NCBI GenBank assembly: GCA_041158765.1
Contig: JBEBAU010000018.1
Coordinates: 2,557-66,556, forward strand
Direction of reading: 5' to 3'
Length of the DNA: 64,000 nt
Source of the DNA: Candidatus Parcubacteria bacterium
GTDB taxonomy: Bacteria; Patescibacteriota; Minisyncoccia; Phycocordibacterales; PALSA-1337
Both the position numbers and the translations under genes were made by a program. The first letter of the stretch is position 1; each line of letters begins with the position of its first letter. Shown in pieces: positions 5,390-39,345 of the stretch. Under the pieces are notes generated by a model, which saw only the letters and a list, made by a program, of their open reading frames with translations, searched no databases and was not told the origin of the DNA.

Positions 5390-6538
5390 GTGAAAAATAC
5401 ACAGCAAAAGAAGAAGGTATTCGTGGGAATGTCCGGAGGAGTTGATAGCTCGGTTTCTGCGGCATTGCTCAAACATGCCGGTTACGATGTAACTGGAGTG
5501 TTTATCAAGGTGTGGCAACCTGATTGGATTACCTGTACGTGGAGAGAAGATCGAATTGATGCAATGCGAGTAGCAGCAGTGCTCGGTATCAAATTCGTAA
5601 CGCTCGATCTCGAAGATGTGTATAAACGCGAGGTAGTTGATTATATGATTGCCGAATATCGTGCTGGGCGAACACCAAATCCCGATGTGATGTGTAATCG
5701 GTATGTGAAATTTGGTGGATTTTTTGATTGGGCAATGAAACAGGGTGCTGATTATGTTGCAACGGGACACTATGCACGAATTGTGAAAAAAGAGGGTGTT
5801 GTAGCTGGAAGTGGTGAAAATGCAGACAAAAGAAACGTGGCGATATATGAATTATGTGCAGGAGACGATCGAAACAAAGATCAGTCGTATTTTCTTTGGA
5901 CACTTGGGCAGCGCGAGCTTTCGCACACGCTGTTTCCTGTGGGTGCTATCGAAAAGCCAGCTGTGCGAAAGCTCGCGCATTCTTTCAAACTTCCAACTGC
6001 CACAAAAAAAGATAGCCAAGGCCTTTGTTTCATTGGAAAAATTGATATCAAAGATTTTCTTTCACGATATATTGAAACAAAGCCCGGTATGGTACTTGAT
6101 GAAAAAGGTGAAAAAATCGGCAGTCATGACGGTGCGGTGTTTTTTACGATGGGAGAGCGACACGGTTTCACTATTGATGCCAAGCACAAAACCCCCAATG
6201 ACAATCCGTATTATGTCGTTTCAAAAGATATTGAAAAAAATACCATAACTGTCGCTTCTGGAAAATCAGATACACAGACTTTCATACAAAAAGAGATTAC
6301 TCTTGAGCAAACGAATTGGAATACTGACATCATACCCGTAGCCACTGCCACATATTATGCTCGACCACGATATCGTGCAGCACTCGTACCAATTTCAATT
6401 CAAGATGCCAATAACACAAAAAAGACCACAAGAATTATTTTCACTGAACCACAACAAACACTTTCATCTGGACAATCACTCGTGATATACGCTGACGCTC
6501 AAGGAGAGGTGTGTATTGGTGGAGGAATCATTGCATAA
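5390..6538 (+). CDS. mnmA: tRNA-specific 2-thiouridylase MnmA
   Basis: PP-loop SGGVDSS, plus KVWQPDW and CFIGKIDIKDFL motifs; start placed at in-frame GTG 5390 (VKNTQQKKKVFVGMSGGVDSS); the ORF track's upstream ATG 5345 overlaps mltG. Confidence 0.85.
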   Translation: MKNTQQKKKVFVGMSGGVDSSVSAALLKHAGYDVTGVFIKVWQPDWITCTWREDRIDAMRVAAVLGIKFVTLDLEDVYKREVVDYMIAEYRAGRTPNPDVMCNRYVKFGGFFDWAMKQGADYVATGHYARIVKKEGVVAGSGENADKRNVAIYELCAGDDRNKDQSYFLWTLGQRELSHTLFPVGAIEKPAVRKLAHSFKLPTATKKDSQGLCFIGKIDIKDFLSRYIETKPGMVLDEKGEKIGSHDGAVFFTMGERHGFTIDAKHKTPNDNPYYVVSKDIEKNTITVASGKSDTQTFIQKEITLEQTNWNTDIIPVATATYYARPRYRAALVPISIQDANNTKKTTRIIFTEPQQTLSSGQSLVIYADAQGEVCIGGGIIA

Positions 6539-9250: not shown

Positions 9251-11137
9251 ATGGATACAAAGCTCAGCTCAGCCCAAATACGTTCACGATTCCTCGCTTT
9301 CTTCGAGAAGCGAGGGCATACAATCATACCTTCTGCATCTCTCGTTACGAGCGATGAAAAGGGTGTAACCAATCCTACACTTTTCAACACTGCTGGTATG
9401 CAACCGCTCATACCATATCTTCTTGGTAAGCCATATATTAAGGACGGCGCGACTGTCACTCGTCTTGCTGATTCACAGAAGTGCGTTCGTACTATTGATA
9501 TTGATGATATTGGTGATAAGACACATGCTACTTTTTTTGAAATGCTTGGTAATTGGTCTCTTGGTGATTATTTCAAAAAAGAGGCTATTGAATGGAGTTT
9601 TCAATTCTTAACTAATCCAGTTGATGCCCCGAAGGGTGATGCTGGTCTTGGTCTCAATCCAAACCGTCTTTACGTCAGTGTTTTCGAAGGTGATGCTGTT
9701 GCGCCACGTGATGAAGAAGCAGCTGAAATTTGGCGAGCTATTTTCAAAAAGAATGGTATTGATTTTGGTGGGGATACAACACAAGGTGAAGCTGGTCGCA
9801 TTTTCTATTTGCCTGCAAAAAATAATTGGTGGGAAGCTGGAGACAATGGTCCATGCGGTCCTGATACAGAGATGTTTTATGATGTTGAAAATACATTCGG
9901 TGGCAAGCTTCTCACGCACGCTGAGTATGTGAAGGCTGATGATGAGCGAACCGTGCTCGAGATTTGGAATGATGTATTCATGCAGTATGAAAAGAAGGAC
10001 GGCAAAGTCATCGGCAAACTTCCAAAGCCATCTGTTGATACAGGCGCCGGCCTTGAGCGTCTCACAATGACATTACAGGGTGTGGATAATATTTACGATA
10101 CGGATTTGTTGAAGCCCGTTATGGATCTCATGAAGAATCCAAATGCAGATATTCGTAATAAACGAATAGTTGCAGATCATCTTCGAGCAAGCGTTTTCAT
10201 GATTTCAGATGGTGTTATTCCATCAAATACTGATCGAGGATACATCCTCCGTCGTCTTATTCGTCGCGCGGTTATGAATACAACCGATAAGAAGCTTGAT
10301 GCACCACGAGTGAATGCATTCGTTACTACACTTGTGCAGATTTATGCCGATTCATATCCAGAACTTACGAATGGTGTTGAACAAATAAAAAAAGTTTTAC
10401 TTGAAGAGTGTGAAAAGTTTGCTAAGACACTCGAGCAAGGTATGAAAGAATTCGATAAGGTTACTCAGGGAGTGAGTGAAATTTCTGGTCCTGTTGCTCT
10501 TACACTTTCATCATCATTTGGTCTGCCAATCGATTCGATTGAAGAACTCGCAAAAAGTCATGGTAAAACTGTGAATATCGCAGAATATCTTACAGAATTC
10601 AAAAAACACCAAGACCTCTCTCGTGCGGGTGCAGAACAGAAGTTCAAGGGTGGTCTTGCTGATGCAAATGATCCGATGGTGCTTCGATATCATACAGCTA
10701 CGCACCTTCTTCATCAGGCACTTCACGATGTACTTGGCGAAGAATCAGGGGGTCAGAAGGGTTCGAATATCACCGCTGAGCGATTACGTTTTGATTTCAT
10801 GGGTATCAAGCTTACTGACGAGCAAAAGAAGCGAGTTGAGGATATTGTGAATGAAAAAATTGCCCTCAAATTACCAATGAATAAAGTGGTTCTTCCAAAG
10901 AGTGAGGCAGAGAAGACTGGTGCACGGCATTTCTTTGGTGAAAAGTACGGCGATGAAGTTTCAATTTATTTCATTGGTACTGATCTTGCTCATGCTTACT
11001 CAAAAGAGTTCTGTGGAGGTCCACACGTTACCAATACTGCTGATCTTGCAGGGCCTGAAGGCACGTGGAAATTCAAAATCCAAAAAGAAGAAGCTGTTTC
11101 ACAGGGTGTTCGACGTATCAAAGCTGTTTTGCAGTAA
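9251..11137 (+). CDS. alaS: Alanyl-tRNA synthetase, compact form lacking the C-Ala domain
   Basis: Class II AlaRS catalytic core at the N-terminus; editing-domain motifs HTATHLLHQALHDVLG and CGGPHV; only 628 aa. Confidence 0.85.
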   Translation: MDTKLSSAQIRSRFLAFFEKRGHTIIPSASLVTSDEKGVTNPTLFNTAGMQPLIPYLLGKPYIKDGATVTRLADSQKCVRTIDIDDIGDKTHATFFEMLGNWSLGDYFKKEAIEWSFQFLTNPVDAPKGDAGLGLNPNRLYVSVFEGDAVAPRDEEAAEIWRAIFKKNGIDFGGDTTQGEAGRIFYLPAKNNWWEAGDNGPCGPDTEMFYDVENTFGGKLLTHAEYVKADDERTVLEIWNDVFMQYEKKDGKVIGKLPKPSVDTGAGLERLTMTLQGVDNIYDTDLLKPVMDLMKNPNADIRNKRIVADHLRASVFMISDGVIPSNTDRGYILRRLIRRAVMNTTDKKLDAPRVNAFVTTLVQIYADSYPELTNGVEQIKKVLLEECEKFAKTLEQGMKEFDKVTQGVSEISGPVALTLSSSFGLPIDSIEELAKSHGKTVNIAEYLTEFKKHQDLSRAGAEQKFKGGLADANDPMVLRYHTATHLLHQALHDVLGEESGGQKGSNITAERLRFDFMGIKLTDEQKKRVEDIVNEKIALKLPMNKVVLPKSEAEKTGARHFFGEKYGDEVSIYFIGTDLAHAYSKEFCGGPHVTNTADLAGPEGTWKFKIQKEEAVSQGVRRIKAVLQ

Positions 11138-32420: not shown

Positions 32421-33050
32421 TCATCGCCATTCGGGCCGGAACAAAAATGTTCCAGTGAGTAGGATAAGAGATCCCTCGGGGGACCCGTCAGCATTCAGTC
32501 GGCTGTAATTCCATCGCCCATTCGCATTCGGCCCGTAATTTCGCCATAGCACTGCTTTTGCAGGCTTGCCAACATTATTCGTGATGGCGAGCTTGTTGAT
32601 TGGGTATGGACTGTCGTGTCCTGCAGAGAGCGAAATGGTTATCGCCGCATCGAGTGCGGGAAGTGTGCACTCAACGATATTCGTATCGCCGAACGACAGC
32701 ACCGAGCTTGGTGCGTTGTTCGGGTTTGCGTCAACCATGATTTTCGACGAGCGAAAATACTGGTTTTGGCTGTTATCGCCGGGGGAATTGTAAGTTCCCT
32801 GGAATGTGGTGCCGGCATTGGTGCCGTTATCCACAAGACCAACACAGTTCCATGTGAACATGTCACTGCTACCTTCAACCGCATAGGCGGAATAGGGTTG
32901 GCAGTTTGATGCGGTCAATGTGACGAACACACGGCCAGCATTCATACTGTCGGGTGTGATCCCGAGGATCGTAATTGTCTGCGCGGGGAGGGCGGACAGG
33001 GTAGCCATCACAAACAATGTGATATACAACCCATACTTTTTGGTTTTCAT
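32421..33050 (-). CDS. Hypothetical secreted protein with a signal peptide, in a GC-rich (about 55%) segment
   Basis: N-terminal MKTKKYGLYITLFVMATLSALPAQT signal; Asn/Gly/Ser-rich mature part; GC far above the window average. Confidence 0.45.
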   Translation of the reverse strand: MKTKKYGLYITLFVMATLSALPAQTITILGITPDSMNAGRVFVTLTASNCQPYSAYAVEGSSDMFTWNCVGLVDNGTNAGTTFQGTYNSPGDNSQNQYFRSSKIMVDANPNNAPSSVLSFGDTNIVECTLPALDAAITISLSAGHDSPYPINKLAITNNVGKPAKAVLWRNYGPNANGRWNYSRLNADGSPEGSLILLTGTFLFRPEWR

Positions 33051-33204
33051 TCGCGGTGTTTCTTTCGTGGTTGGGAGTTGAGGTTTGGAGACGCATTACG
33101 ATCGACGTGAGGCTTAGTGTCGACGCGAGATTGTAAAGGAACAAGGGTTTGTGCTTGCTCAGGTAATATTGTCTCACTTTTAGTGAACATTGTCAATACA
33201 GTGA

Positions 33205-33325
33205 TAAAAAGAATATCCACAAGCTTTGAGAGGGCTTTCGCAGGACATGAAGATGTCCGAGAATGAGCTAGAAAGTCAGCAGACTTTCATAGTGTACCTC
33301 GATAAGCTTGTGGATATTCTTTTTA
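33205..33325 (-). ncRNA. Candidate structured 3'-UTR element, copy 2 (22-bp perfect terminal inverted repeat plus two internal hairpins), transcribed with typA
   Basis: Arms taaaaagaatatccacaagctt (33205-33226) and the exact reverse complement (33304-33325); the right arm overlaps the typA stop codon; internal hairpins gaaagtc/gactttc (loop TGCTG) and ggacat/atgtcc with a UGC bulge; homologous to 37670-37786. Confidence 0.35.
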
Positions 33326-35128
33326 GAGATCTTTTCGCTTTGCTTTTGCGCGGTCGTTGTCGGTGAGGAATTTCTTGCGGAGGCGGACATTCTTTGGAGT
33401 GATTTCAAGATATTCATCTTCACGCATGGTTTCGAGTCCTCGTTCGATATCGAGATCCCAGTGAGGAGTGAGCATGATGTGTTCGTCGTTTCCAGATGAG
33501 CGCATATTGCTCATTGCTTTTGCTTTACATGGATTCACGTCCATATCATCACCCTTCGATGTATCACCAACAACCATACCCTCATAGACATCAGTTGTAG
33601 GACCAATGAAGAGGCGACCACGTTCCTGTAGATTCCAAAGTGCGAAAGCAAGAGCCTTGCCGGTCATCATTGATGTCATAGAACCAGTGCCGTGCTTTTC
33701 GATTTCACCTGCATACGCACGGAATTCAAGGAAACGACTTGAAAGAATACCTTCACCCTTGGTATCAATAACGAAAGCACCTCGATATCCAAGAAGACCT
33801 CGAGTAGGAATTTCAAAAACCATTCGAACCTGATTCTCTTTTGTTTTCATATCCACCATCTGTGCTTTGCGCTTGCCGAGCTTTTCGATAATAACTCCTG
33901 AAGCTGTTTCAGGTGCATCAATAGTGAGCTCTTCGTATGGCTCGCTCTTAATCATTTTGCCATTAGCATCAGCAATGTCTTTCACAATAACTTGTGGCTG
34001 AGAAACCTGAAGTTCATATCCTTCACGGCGCATGTTTTCGAGAAGAACAGCAATGTGAAGCTCTCCACGGCCGAAGACTTTGTAATATTCACTTGATGAA
34101 AAATCTACTTTGAGACCGACGTTGATCTCGAGCTCTTTTTCGAGACGTTCACGGATTTGGCGACCTGTTACGAATTTGCCTTCTTTGCCCGCAAAAGGAG
34201 AGTTGTTAACGAGGAAGTTGAGGGAAATAGTCGGTTCATCAATCTTAATTGTTGGCATTGCAACAGTCTCTTGATTGTCGGTGATAGTTTCACCAATGAA
34301 GATTTCAGGAAGACCTGCAACTACAGCAATGTCTCCTGCTGCGGCTTCTTTGACCTCAACACGCTGCTTACCGGTGAATGTAAACATCTTGGTGATTTTG
34401 CCTGCCATTGTTGAACCATCAACTCGCTTCACGAATACATTCTGACCGTCTCGAAGCATTCCGTCGTACACACGACAAACCGCAAGTCGTCCAAGGAAGT
34501 TATCGTATCCAAGATTGAAAACCTGAGCTTTGAGAGGAAGTGATGCTTGTTCTGGAGTGTTGGCTGGAGGAACGTGTGAAAGGATACAGTCGAGAAGAGG
34601 TTTGAGATCAGTTGCTTCATCAGACATCTTCATCTTTGCAACACCTTGTCGGCCAATAGCGTATACGGTAGGGAAATCAATCTGGCTGTCATTGGCACCG
34701 AGCTCCATGAAGAGTTCGAGCACTGCATCGTGAGTACCATTCACATCTGCAGCTGGCTTGTCGATCTTGTTGATAACAACGATTGGCTTCATACCAAGCT
34801 CGAGAGATTTCTTGAGTACAAAACGTGTCTGTGGCATTGGGCCTTCCTGTGCATCAACAATGAGGAGCACGTTGTCAATTGATCGAAGCACACGTTCTAC
34901 TTCTGAACCGAAGTCGGCGTGACCTGGAGTGTCAACGATGTTGATCTTGGTGCCCTTATATTCAACCGAAGTATTCTTCGCATAAATAGTAATACCGCGC
35001 TCTTGTTCGAGGGCGTTGCTGTCCATTGAACCTTCATCGGTATGACCACATTGAGTCATGATGGCATCGGTCAAGGTTGTCTTGCCGTGGTCCACGTGAG
35101 CGATGATTGCGATATTGCGAATTTCCAT
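33323..35128 (-). CDS. typA: Translational GTPase TypA/BipA
   Basis: G-domain [22 protein letters not shown]; EF-G-like domains; 601 aa. Confidence 0.9.
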
Positions 35129-37316: not shown

Positions 37317-37348
37317 AAGCCGTTTTGCTCACGCAAAACGGCTTTTTT
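37317..37348 (+). terminator. Intrinsic terminator (gccgttttgc/gcaaaacggc + TTTTTT)
   Basis: 10-bp stem, loop tcac, T-tract. Confidence 0.7.
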
Positions 37349-37359
37349 CTATGAGAATC

Positions 37360-37388
37360 TTGCAAAAGTGACGCCCGTCTGCTATAGT
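37360..37388 (+). promoter_or_regulatory. Promoter TTGCAA-17-TATAGT; -10 ends 7 nt before the rpmE ATG (leaderless transcript likely)
   Basis: Seen in sequence. Confidence 0.5.
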
Positions 37389-37395
37389 TTCTCGC

Positions 37396-37665
37396 ATGAA
37401 AAAAGACATCCATCCAAAGGACTATCGCCAGGTAATCTTCGTTGATAACTCAAACGGAGCGCAGTTTCTTATTTCTTCTACTATCAAGACAAAAGAAACC
37501 GCAAAGTGGACTGATGGTAAGGAGTACCCATCATATGGTCTCGAAATCACCAGCGCTTCACATCCATTCTATACGAATCAGGAGAAGTCACTCGATGCAG
37601 CTGGACGTGTTGAGAAGTTTAAGAGTCGACAATCAAAGTCTACTGCAGCAAAGAAGAAGGCGTAA
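37396..37665 (+). CDS. rpmE: 50S ribosomal protein L31 (type B, no zinc-binding Cys)
   Basis: [25 protein letters not shown]...[12 protein letters not shown] matches L31. Confidence 0.85.
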
Positions 37666-37669
37666 CGTA

Positions 37670-37786
37670 GAAAAAGAATTAAGTGTTTCTTTTAGGAAAC
37701 GCCGTCAAAATCTGCTGATTTTGCGGCTCGCTCTCGGATGTCAAACATCCTGCGAGAGTCCTAAAAGAAACACTTAATTCTTTTTC
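37670..37786 (+). ncRNA. Candidate structured 3'-UTR element, copy 1 (28-bp perfect terminal inverted repeat enclosing two hairpins), 4 nt after the rpmE stop
   Basis: Arms gaaaaagaattaagtgtttcttttagga (37670-37697) and the exact reverse complement (37759-37786); internal hairpins caaaatc/gattttg (loop TGCT) and ggatg/catcc + ctctc/gagag with a UGC bulge; homolog at 33205-33325. Confidence 0.35.
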
Positions 37787-37823
37787 ATATATACCTTATT
37801 CTTGATACAATAATCTAACGACT

Positions 37824-38912: not shown

Positions 38913-38940
38913 CCCCGCTTCACGGCGGGGTTTCGTTTTG
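38913..38940. terminator. Hairpin ccccgc ttcacg gcgggg + tttcgtttt, overlapping the stop of the minus-strand toxin gene; bidirectional
   Basis: Seen in sequence downstream of prfA. Confidence 0.5.
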
Positions 38941-39345
38941 TATAACACCAAGCAGTATGAAGGATAATTTCGCTACTACTCGATAAAATGTGAGTACTTT
39001 GAGTCTAGAAATTTTACGAAGGAGGCGCTTGCTGCTAATAGTTCTAATTTGCGACAAGATGAGTTGTGAGGTGTCACCGGTGCTTTGAGTTGAAATCCGA
39101 TATTCACTATCAATAATCTTACTCGTGAAGGGGATTACCCACAGTATATCTTTGGTTACCTTTTTTAAGATAAGTACTGGCCGTTCAAAATTTTCATGTT
39201 TCCCGTCTTGTTCAGATCCTACGTTTACACCAAGTGCGCACCACCAGATTTCGCGTTCATGAAAGAAATCCTCGAATTTTTCAAGATCAAGTTTTTTTAT
39301 TCTCGTATTCCATGAGTCAAAATCTTTTATGTAGCTATTATTCAT
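38920..39345 (-). CDS. PemK/MazF-family (Kid-like) endoribonuclease toxin homolog, with no cognate antitoxin gene evident
   Basis: REIWWCALGVNVGSEQDGKHENFERPVLILKK...VIPFTSK aligns to the PemK/Kid core GEIWLVSLDPTAGHEQQGTRPVLIV...VVPVTS; the C-terminal region is also similar. Confidence 0.5.
   Translation of the reverse strand: MNNSYIKDFDSWNTRIKKLDLEKFEDFFHEREIWWCALGVNVGSEQDGKHENFERPVLILKKVTKDILWVIPFTSKIIDSEYRISTQSTGDTSQLILSQIRTISSKRLLRKISRLKVLTFYRVVAKLSFILLGVIQNETPP

Follow-up and report, generated by a model that had tools for sequence, protein, structure and literature searches.

The 64,000-nucleotide (nt) stretch of contig JBEBAU010000018.1 analysed here (GenBank assembly GCA_041158765.1, Candidatus Parcubacteria bacterium), which we call the window, holds a long branched hairpin in the spacer between rpmE and prfA (copy 1) and a related hairpin after typA (copy 2). 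We find that the two belong to a previously undescribed family of intergenic hairpin elements in Patescibacteria and Dormibacterota, in which each copy has a near-perfect, locus-specific stem of ~26 bp with a conserved three-way junction at its tip; in this structure and this family we have high confidence. Our preferred interpretation of copy 1, to which we give a probability of roughly one half, is that it closes rpmE with a terminator-like 3' hairpin, whose cap is a module from a repeat family with fast, mobile-like turnover. The terminator role and the mobility are put forward with moderate confidence.

Copy 1 lies immediately downstream of rpmE (Pfam Ribosomal_L31): its 5' arm begins 4 nt after the stop codon (TAA, 37663-37665), and 37 nt beyond its 3' arm is the ATG of prfA (37824; PCRF and RF-1 domains). 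The arms of copy 1, 37670-37697 and 37759-37786, make up a perfect inverted repeat of 28 nt (100% complementary), and the 61-nt spacer that they enclose forms, in the predicted RNA fold, two hairpins (A and B) that sit on a 27-bp outer stem as a three-way junction. The minimum free energy (MFE) is -64.8 kcal/mol (z = -11.9), and none of 200 shuffles was as stable; the opposite strand folds nearly as well (-63.5 kcal/mol). A preliminary description of this DNA had reported the perfect inverted repeat, the two hairpins and their placement between the genes, and all of this is borne out. It had also stated that a clean U-tract was absent, which we would correct: the base of the 3' arm is a 9-nt U-rich tract, UUCUUUUUC (37778-37786), paired with the A-tract of the 5' arm, and UUCUUUUU is the terminus of both window copies.

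Copy 2 (33205-33325) had been noticed before as a diverged repeat, but its position on the minus strand, directly 3' of typA/bipA (33323-35128), had been missed. Its 29-nt arms are 90% complementary and it folds at -54 to -59 kcal/mol (-54.1 in one fold); on the minus strand it scores 116.6 bits against the covariance model described below. The 5' arm, UAAAAAGAAUAUCCACAAGCUU (33325-33304, minus strand), has the typA stop codon as its first three bases, and the 3' arm closes with AUUCUUUUUA (33226-33205, minus strand), the base of the arm, which pairs with an A-tract and has a T-run of 5 at its 3' base. Since copy 2 is a minus-strand element downstream of typA, the two copies point the same way with respect to the gene that each follows. 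The two copies are ~75% identical. Their cores can be aligned and differ by compensatory changes in hairpin A as well as in hairpin B, whereas the outer arms have only AAAAAGAAU...AUUCUUUUU in common. The core pattern occurs twice in the window, against 0 occurrences expected by chance, and neither this pattern nor the covariance model finds a third copy there.

To define the family we built a covariance model and then scanned the core pattern, which included the junction motif GCUC, across species-representative genomes, gathering ~60 copies from Patescibacteria and high-GC Dormibacterota. In a 5-sequence alignment, 33 of the 42 predicted pairs keep pairing through double changes. The main covariation test used 42 copies, all from genomes other than that of the window: 94.0% of cells are in standard pairs, whereas shuffling leaves 53.6% and sliding the 3' partners leaves 43-49%. 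Each of the 42 modelled pairs is altered on both sides, with 696 double-change cells in total, and the covariation score of 0.926 was reached by 0 of 500 shuffles (0.200) and fell to 0.13-0.18 with slid partners. In hairpin A 11 of 11 pairs are altered on both sides (99.1% of cells paired), in the upper stem of hairpin B all six modelled pairs covary (98.3%), and the 21 pairs of the outer stem all vary freely. G-U pairs make up ~1.5% of cells, no commoner than A-C mismatches. A lack of homologs and of covariation had been named in advance as what would undo the idea of a functional structured RNA; both homologs and covariation are present, and the conserved structured element stands, but the near-absence of G-U pairs fails to establish RNA rather than DNA as the molecule under selection.

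Members of the family are 96-144 nt long (median 122), with 17-33 bp (median 26) stacked beneath the junction. The conserved parts are the junctions UAC and GCUC, the loops of hairpin A (C-UNCU-G) and hairpin B (C-CUNC-G), and a bulged helix, CUCGG...CC-U(C/G)C-GAG, with the motifs CUCGG and CCU(G/C)CGA in hairpin B. Copy 1 shows these parts as follows, all on the plus strand. The 5' arm of the outer stem, GAAAAAGAAUUAAGUGUUUCUUUUAGGA (37670-37697), starts with the A-tract and takes part in pairing in the MFE structure; the AGGA that forms its final 4 nt corresponds to the inner helix P1b of the family, and the sequence of the equivalent arm differs in every family member with its complementarity kept. 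Junction J1/2 (37698-37700) reads AAC where the family has UAC, the AC being invariant in the 5-sequence alignment. Hairpin A (P2, 37701-37727) folds with a base GCCG/CGGC (37701-37704 / 37724-37727), an upper stem CAAAAUC/GAUUUUG (37706-37712 / 37717-37723) and the loop UGCU (37713-37716). The junction motif GCUC(G) between the hairpins (37726-37730), of which GCUC is invariant in the alignments, leads into hairpin B (P3, 37731-37758), which folds with a lower stem CUCUC/GAGAG (37731-37735 / 37754-37758), an upper stem GGAUGU/ACAUCC (37736-37741 / 37745-37750), the loop CAA and, at the position of the family's U(C/G)C, the 3-nt bulge UGC (37751-37753). The 3' arm (37759-37786) has a T-run of 5 at its 3' base.

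Two unusual members deserve mention. The rpmE-prfA spacer of locus L011 holds an element (9848-9998) with a 26-bp perfect stem and a three-way junction in which hairpin A (UACU loop) is family-like and the hairpin B region degenerate; it escapes detection by our model, which therefore covers less than the whole family. At L008 (1760-1890, minus strand) the outer stem is short and hairpin A carries a tandem duplication, with CCAGTCTGGTG present twice; this copy is opposite in orientation to both neighbouring genes and lies 113 nt from a gene for an RRM_1-domain protein.

Copies positive with the model occur in Saccharibacteria (up to four in 8 kb, at L015), in Zambryskii-, Vogel-, Nomura-, Taylor- and Adlerbacteria and other Paceibacterota and, unexpectedly, in several metagenome-assembled genomes (MAGs) of Dormibacterota with 73-77% GC (L018, L030, L059 and L119, from one MAG; L061, L085, L114 and L117). 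The window itself comes from a Parcubacteria/Paceibacteria MAG that lies close to Taylorbacteria. The Dormibacterota copies have GC-rich stems with the junction and loop motifs unchanged, and they share with one Saccharibacteria genome (L024, L060, L077) an outer-stem segment, ATCRTC...GACGAY, with an A-C mismatch. Pattern hits in other phyla were all negative with the model, so that among the pattern hits the family is seen only in Patescibacteria and Dormibacterota; a viral origin was considered and set aside, the three pattern hits in viral contigs being likewise negative. Assignment to a known Rfam family had been foreseen as a refuting outcome, but at gathering thresholds Rfam 15 finds only a tRNA in the window, and with permissive settings the two copies draw nothing beyond generic long-hairpin matches (plant miRNA and snoRNA models) far below threshold. 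Full-text literature searches found no description of the family.

The copies lie at the 3' ends of genes: almost all are next to a stop codon (-7 to ~+50 nt), often overlapping it, and relative to the abutting gene 33 copies are co-oriented and 7 inverted (p = 4e-5). The genes upstream include those for L31 (rpmE), BipA (typA), S7 (rpsG), EF-G (fusA), L5 (rplE), sigma-70 (rpoD) and NrdB (nrdB); at L040 the copies lie inside the str operon, in the order S7, element, fusA, element. In low-GC genomes the base of the stem is polar, with an A fraction of 0.43 on the 5' side and a T fraction of 0.41 on the 3' side, and a T-run of at least 4 is found in both window copies and in nearly all rpmE-prfA copies of relatives. 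In position both window copies match a terminator, since each places a stable hairpin right at the stop codon and in the sense direction of the gene that precedes it. Size is another matter: a typical intrinsic terminator has a stem of ~5-14 bp and a loop of 3-8 nt, and copy 1 has a 27-28-bp stem and a 61-nt branched interior. A simple terminator scan did not call the window copies because its loop limit is 8 nt.

The surrounding sequence is consistent with a transcription boundary at copy 1. A promoter scan found a promoter-like site for rpmE (TTGCAA-17-TATAGT with TG, 37360-37388, plus strand) just after an ordinary terminator of gmk (37317-37350), and this order makes rpmE a small transcription unit that would end at copy 1. 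Past copy 1 the scan found an extended -10 promoter-like site for prfA, TGaTACAAT (37803-37811, plus strand), with TG before the second hexamer and 12 nt before the ATG; TGnTAnAAT likewise follows the element in L004, L005, L006, L146, L162 and L172. Just past copy 2, a sigma-70-type site (TTGACA-17-GACAAT with TG, 33168-33196, minus strand) lies ahead of an open reading frame (ORF) of 209 amino acids (aa) at 32421-33050.

What relatives hold at the same site bears on this interpretation. We compared the rpmE-prfA spacer at ~88 prfA loci and found five forms. In the first (~20 loci) the element is absent and rpmE and prfA abut or overlap. In the second, seen for example at L199, L166, L191, L151 and L167, the genes are separated by a plain terminator whose perfect stem of 15-22 bp takes in A and U tracts. 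The third is a long stem capped by the family core in either orientation (inverted in L181, L177, L169 and L144). It includes L004, L005 and L006 (PrfA 74-86% identical), which keep the core motifs on unrelated outer stems, and altogether the site is occupied by the element across relatives with PrfA 58-100% identical. In the fourth, the long stem bears a small core of unrelated type, here named family B, just 5' of prfA (at ~5001) in L142, L157, L163, L165, L168 and L192; this core of ~45 nt consists of CCYUGCGCCCUUC, a hairpin with a GAGUAC-like loop and then GGGACCCUCGG, at the tip of a 20-27-bp perfect stem, and the family B spacers have no Rfam match. In the fifth (L140, L152, L175, L176 and L195) there are arrays of 2-4 GGAGG-rich, GC-rich hairpins built from GGAGGAG/CCTCCTC-like repeats, with no above-threshold Rfam match. 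After typA, similarly, the place of copy 2 is taken in L004 by a plain terminator. The U-rich tract at the base of the 3' arm, the plain long-stem terminators at the same site and the promoter-like site of prfA directly after copy 1 undercut the preliminary argument that so long a perfect stem speaks against a terminator. Termination as such appears not to need the conserved tip, since relatives make do with plain hairpins there.

Several comparisons show that the element turns over quickly. First, loci with 89-94% identical PrfA differ in spacer state, and L172 and L181 (PrfA 91% identical) have homologous cores in opposite orientation on unrelated stems. Second, within one genome a core of ~88 nt can be nearly identical between copies, with a sharp, symmetric boundary against unique outer stems (L024/L060/L077 and L020/L053); L020 and L053 differ by two compensatory base-pair changes in hairpin B. 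Near-identical multiple copies occur in CAYRZH, in JAHFLV and at L015 (the four copies in 8 kb), compared with two copies, ~75% identical, in the window itself. Third, Paceibacteria (L005, L006) and Saccharibacteria (L015, L045, L062) have one and the same variant of hairpin B, GGACAC-CUNC-GUGUCC. Fourth, at L015 (5033-7144, Saccharibacteria contig CAZWGR010000004) two inverted copies bracket a major facilitator superfamily (MFS) transporter gene and a 105-aa ORF, in the manner of a composite cassette, between rplE (L5) and rpsH (S8) of the spc operon. In the pair L146/L162, where the genomes are 90.7% identical and the flanks ~95%, the element is only ~60% identical with pairing kept; this is divergence at about the neutral rate under a pairing constraint and does not require hypermutation of the stem, which we considered and rejected.

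We propose that copy 1 would form the 3'-terminal hairpin of a short rpmE unit, the U-rich run UUCUUUUUC following the stem and partly building it, and that RNA polymerase would terminate there or the transcript would be shielded there from 3' exonucleases. An extended -10 promoter 17 nt past copy 1 would then drive prfA separately, and copy 1 and this promoter-like site together would insulate rpmE from the prfA transcription unit; copy 2 may do the same job for typA. The conserved tip would be the hallmark of a repeat family that is quickly gained, lost, inverted and exchanged between related genomes. Such a family may be a non-autonomous, structure-dependent, mobile-like element, tolerated for occupying or creating terminator-like hairpins.

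A bolder version, which we offer tentatively and regard as unlikely, attributes activity to the three-way junction itself: the element would be mobile, structure-dependent and of a new kind, ~65-90 nt long and without terminal repeats, target duplication or a linked enzyme. It would install itself at the tips of long hairpins or build its own perfect stem, and would have moved between classes of Patescibacteria and into Dormibacterota, possibly via a folded single-strand intermediate; family B would be a second example.

A number of observations count against our preferred interpretation of copy 1. A T-run of at least 4 stands at the 3' base in only 16 of 39 low-GC copies, and most Saccharibacteria copies and all Dormibacterota copies are without one, for which reason the terminator role cannot be general. 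The stem is far longer than in known intrinsic terminators and its base is AU-rich, and it is from anatomy that we infer termination or 3'-end stabilisation. As for mobility, which we likewise infer, no transposase, integrase or reverse transcriptase recurs near the copies in the ~25 neighbourhoods inspected, and the window offers a circumstantial case, having only two copies that are ~75% identical. We found no target-site duplication wherever the true outer boundary was reached (flanking matches of 2-3 nt are the conserved internal loop at P1b), and conserved terminal repeats are absent, the outer arms differing in every copy even where cores are nearly identical. These two results also dispose of a classical miniature inverted-repeat transposable element (MITE), which had been raised at the outset as a competing explanation. 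The plain long-stem terminators at the same site invite the idea that every outer stem began as a terminator into whose loop the core was inserted. At L182 (4805-5001), however, a plain terminator, AAAAAGCTC...GAGCTTTTT, homologous to that of L199, stands ahead of a complete element that has a separate 25-bp stem, the two being in tandem rather than nested, and L172/L181 and L146/L162 show unrelated or strongly diverged stems in the same flanks. Because the L182 element sits beside a terminator, the locus-specific stems are not simply invaded terminators. Finally, the deep conservation of loops and junctions over two phyla and the orientation bias fit a host-beneficial RNA as well.

Such a dedicated 3' untranslated region (UTR) RNA domain is the rival that survives best, and we consider it doubtful. 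Here the junction would bind a conserved protein or ligand, affecting for instance mRNA half-life or processing or tuning a terminator in the way of an embedded aptamer, with the stem presenting the junction and the copies being ancient paralogues. It accounts well for the retention of the loops (UNCU, CUNC), junctions (UAC, GCUC) and 3-nt bulge from 30%-GC Paceibacteria to 75%-GC Dormibacterota with covariation in all stems, for the 33 to 7 bias towards the sense orientation, for the occupation of the rpmE-prfA site over so wide a range of PrfA identity, and for the many translation factors and ribosomal proteins among the upstream genes. It does not account for the scarcity of G-U pairs, which is unlike typical RNA-only covariation, nor for the seven inverted copies that have been retained, some of them at the same site. 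Close relatives do without the element, their genes abutting, and an unrelated core or a plain hairpin can fill its place; the sharp boundaries of nearly identical cores within a genome and the stem variants identical across classes likewise count against it. A 28-bp perfect stem would moreover leave a ligand-dependent switch no room.

Less probable again is a purely DNA-level element, whose single-strand or cruciform hairpins would be the substrate of a recombinase or HUH-type transposase encoded elsewhere (compare REP/RAYT, IS200/IS605 ends and attC), transcription and termination being incidental. Pairing in all helices is Watson-Crick only, on both strands, and the strands of copy 1 fold equally well; copy number and turnover are mobile-like, inverted copies bracket the inserted cassette at L015, and the orientation bias could arise if insertion were coupled to replication direction. 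The pairing data nonetheless fail to separate RNA from DNA as the selected molecule, because G-U pairs are rare and the ordinary terminators of the window (12-15-bp stems) are also Watson-Crick only. Nor could the strand be assigned from G-U versus A-C counts, an uninformative comparison in which both are rare, A-C if anything is commoner and some mismatches are inherited. We identified neither a candidate enzyme in the ~25 neighbourhoods nor a conserved motif resembling a nick site, and the location of nearly all copies at gene 3' ends, with a U-tract in the window copies, suggests selection through transcription. The remaining idea, a prfA-specific cis-regulator (an attenuator, or the read-through control first suggested) or an autoregulatory site for L31, draws on the position of the element between rpmE and prfA and the filling of that site in many relatives, but is very improbable and largely refuted by the distribution, given that the family follows many unrelated genes, that prfA has its own promoter-like site past the element, that ~20 relatives have rpmE and prfA abutting without it, that this site holds an inverted core in some genomes and an unrelated one in others, and that the Rfam L31 leader families are unmatched.

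Among known repeats, the closest parallels to this family are the proteobacterial stem-loop families ERIC, NEMIS/Correia and PU-BIME/REP; Yersinia ERIC sequences are reported to act on the expression of neighbouring genes by folding as RNA hairpins (PMC2267715). Those families are intergenic repeats of the 100-150-nt class with a long hairpin, next to and co-transcribed with genes, multi-copy and polymorphic between strains, and the present family resembles them. Those families conserve terminal inverted repeats, and Correia and ERIC insert at TA with duplications, whereas the present family conserves the apex, has arms unique to each copy and shows no target duplication; it has no sequence or Rfam similarity to them, and its hosts are Patescibacteria and Dormibacterota. 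As for the REP/BIME-RAYT and IS200/IS605 systems, intergenic hairpins are shared with them, but the stems here have no sequence conservation and there is no linked gene in the neighbourhoods examined. Autonomous, enzyme-encoding elements of kilobase size also use hairpins as targets: IS1397 and ISKpn1 target REP loops, and group IIC introns target terminator hairpins. The present family would resemble these in placing a guest sequence at pre-existing intergenic hairpins as safe insertion sites; it differs in its core of ~65-90 nt, in the lack of a linked gene and in the L182 element that lies beside a terminator.

With intrinsic terminators of the bidirectional type copy 1 shares the position after a stop codon and before the next promoter, the A-rich 5' base and the U-rich 3' base; a stem of 27-28 bp with a 61-nt branched apex sets it apart, and many members of the family have no U-run. 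The HMP-PP (thiS) riboswitch offers another comparison, in that it is reported to have an aptamer embedded in a terminator (PMC6478431). On that account it resembles our element in being a conserved structured module nested within a terminator stem. The HMP-PP aptamer belongs to a 5' leader, serves one pathway and has a short switchable stem, unlike our element, which lies 3' of diverse genes on a very long stem unable to switch.

Other candidates were rejected on comparison. Retrons, integron attC sites and hairpins of diversity-generating retroelements do not fit, in that no reverse transcriptase or integrase is nearby, the setting is one of housekeeping operons, and the variable parts are the ends and not the centre. 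A dif/Xer site was suggested by a GCATAAT-like stretch in some copies, which falls in a covarying stem and is unconserved. On comparison of the junctions with consensus structures, and in agreement with Rfam, we found no match to hammerhead, twister or pistol ribozymes, kink-turns, group II domain 5, signal recognition particle (SRP) RNA, 6S RNA, Y RNA, 5S rRNA or tRNA-like structures: the junctions have no CUGAUGA/GAAA core, a kink-turn would require GA opposite the bulge, where this strand reads UC, and the 8-nt resemblance to 5S rRNA, UGCGAGAG, is unconserved in the family.

The genomes of Patescibacteria (the candidate phyla radiation, CPR) are tiny and contain hardly any non-coding sequence, and to our knowledge few structured non-coding elements have been described in them. 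Against that background we present a robustly defined family that is absent from Rfam, lies within core translation operons (rpmE-prfA, S7-fusA, L5-S8) and is shared with an unrelated high-GC phylum. If the element does terminate or stabilise transcripts, it shows the rewiring of operon boundaries, rpmE and prfA being fused in some relatives and separated by a terminator and promoter in others. If it is mobile, its combination of variable ends, conserved centre and no target duplication matches no known bacterial miniature element and would point to a novel mechanism of propagation. The presence/absence polymorphism, the near-identical cores within genomes and the spread over two phyla had not been foreseen in the preliminary description.

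The covariance model could also be used to annotate the element and so avoid spurious ORF calls across it. A 111-aa ORF with a TTG start (37442-37777, plus strand) crosses rpmE in another frame and enters copy 1; it is probably spurious, and its overlap with copy 1 shows how the element can seed false gene calls. Elsewhere in the window there is a decorated hairpin of another kind (5911-5978), with 17-bp perfect arms, GCGCGAGCTTTCGCACA, around a 34-nt interior; its MFE is -42 kcal/mol (z = -4.3) and it does not match the covariance model. Immediately beyond prfA lies a PemK-family toxin gene (38920-39345, minus strand), and a HicA toxin gene follows further downstream of prfA (L001:17656-17886); toxin-antitoxin modules of these two kinds are thus scattered among core translation genes.

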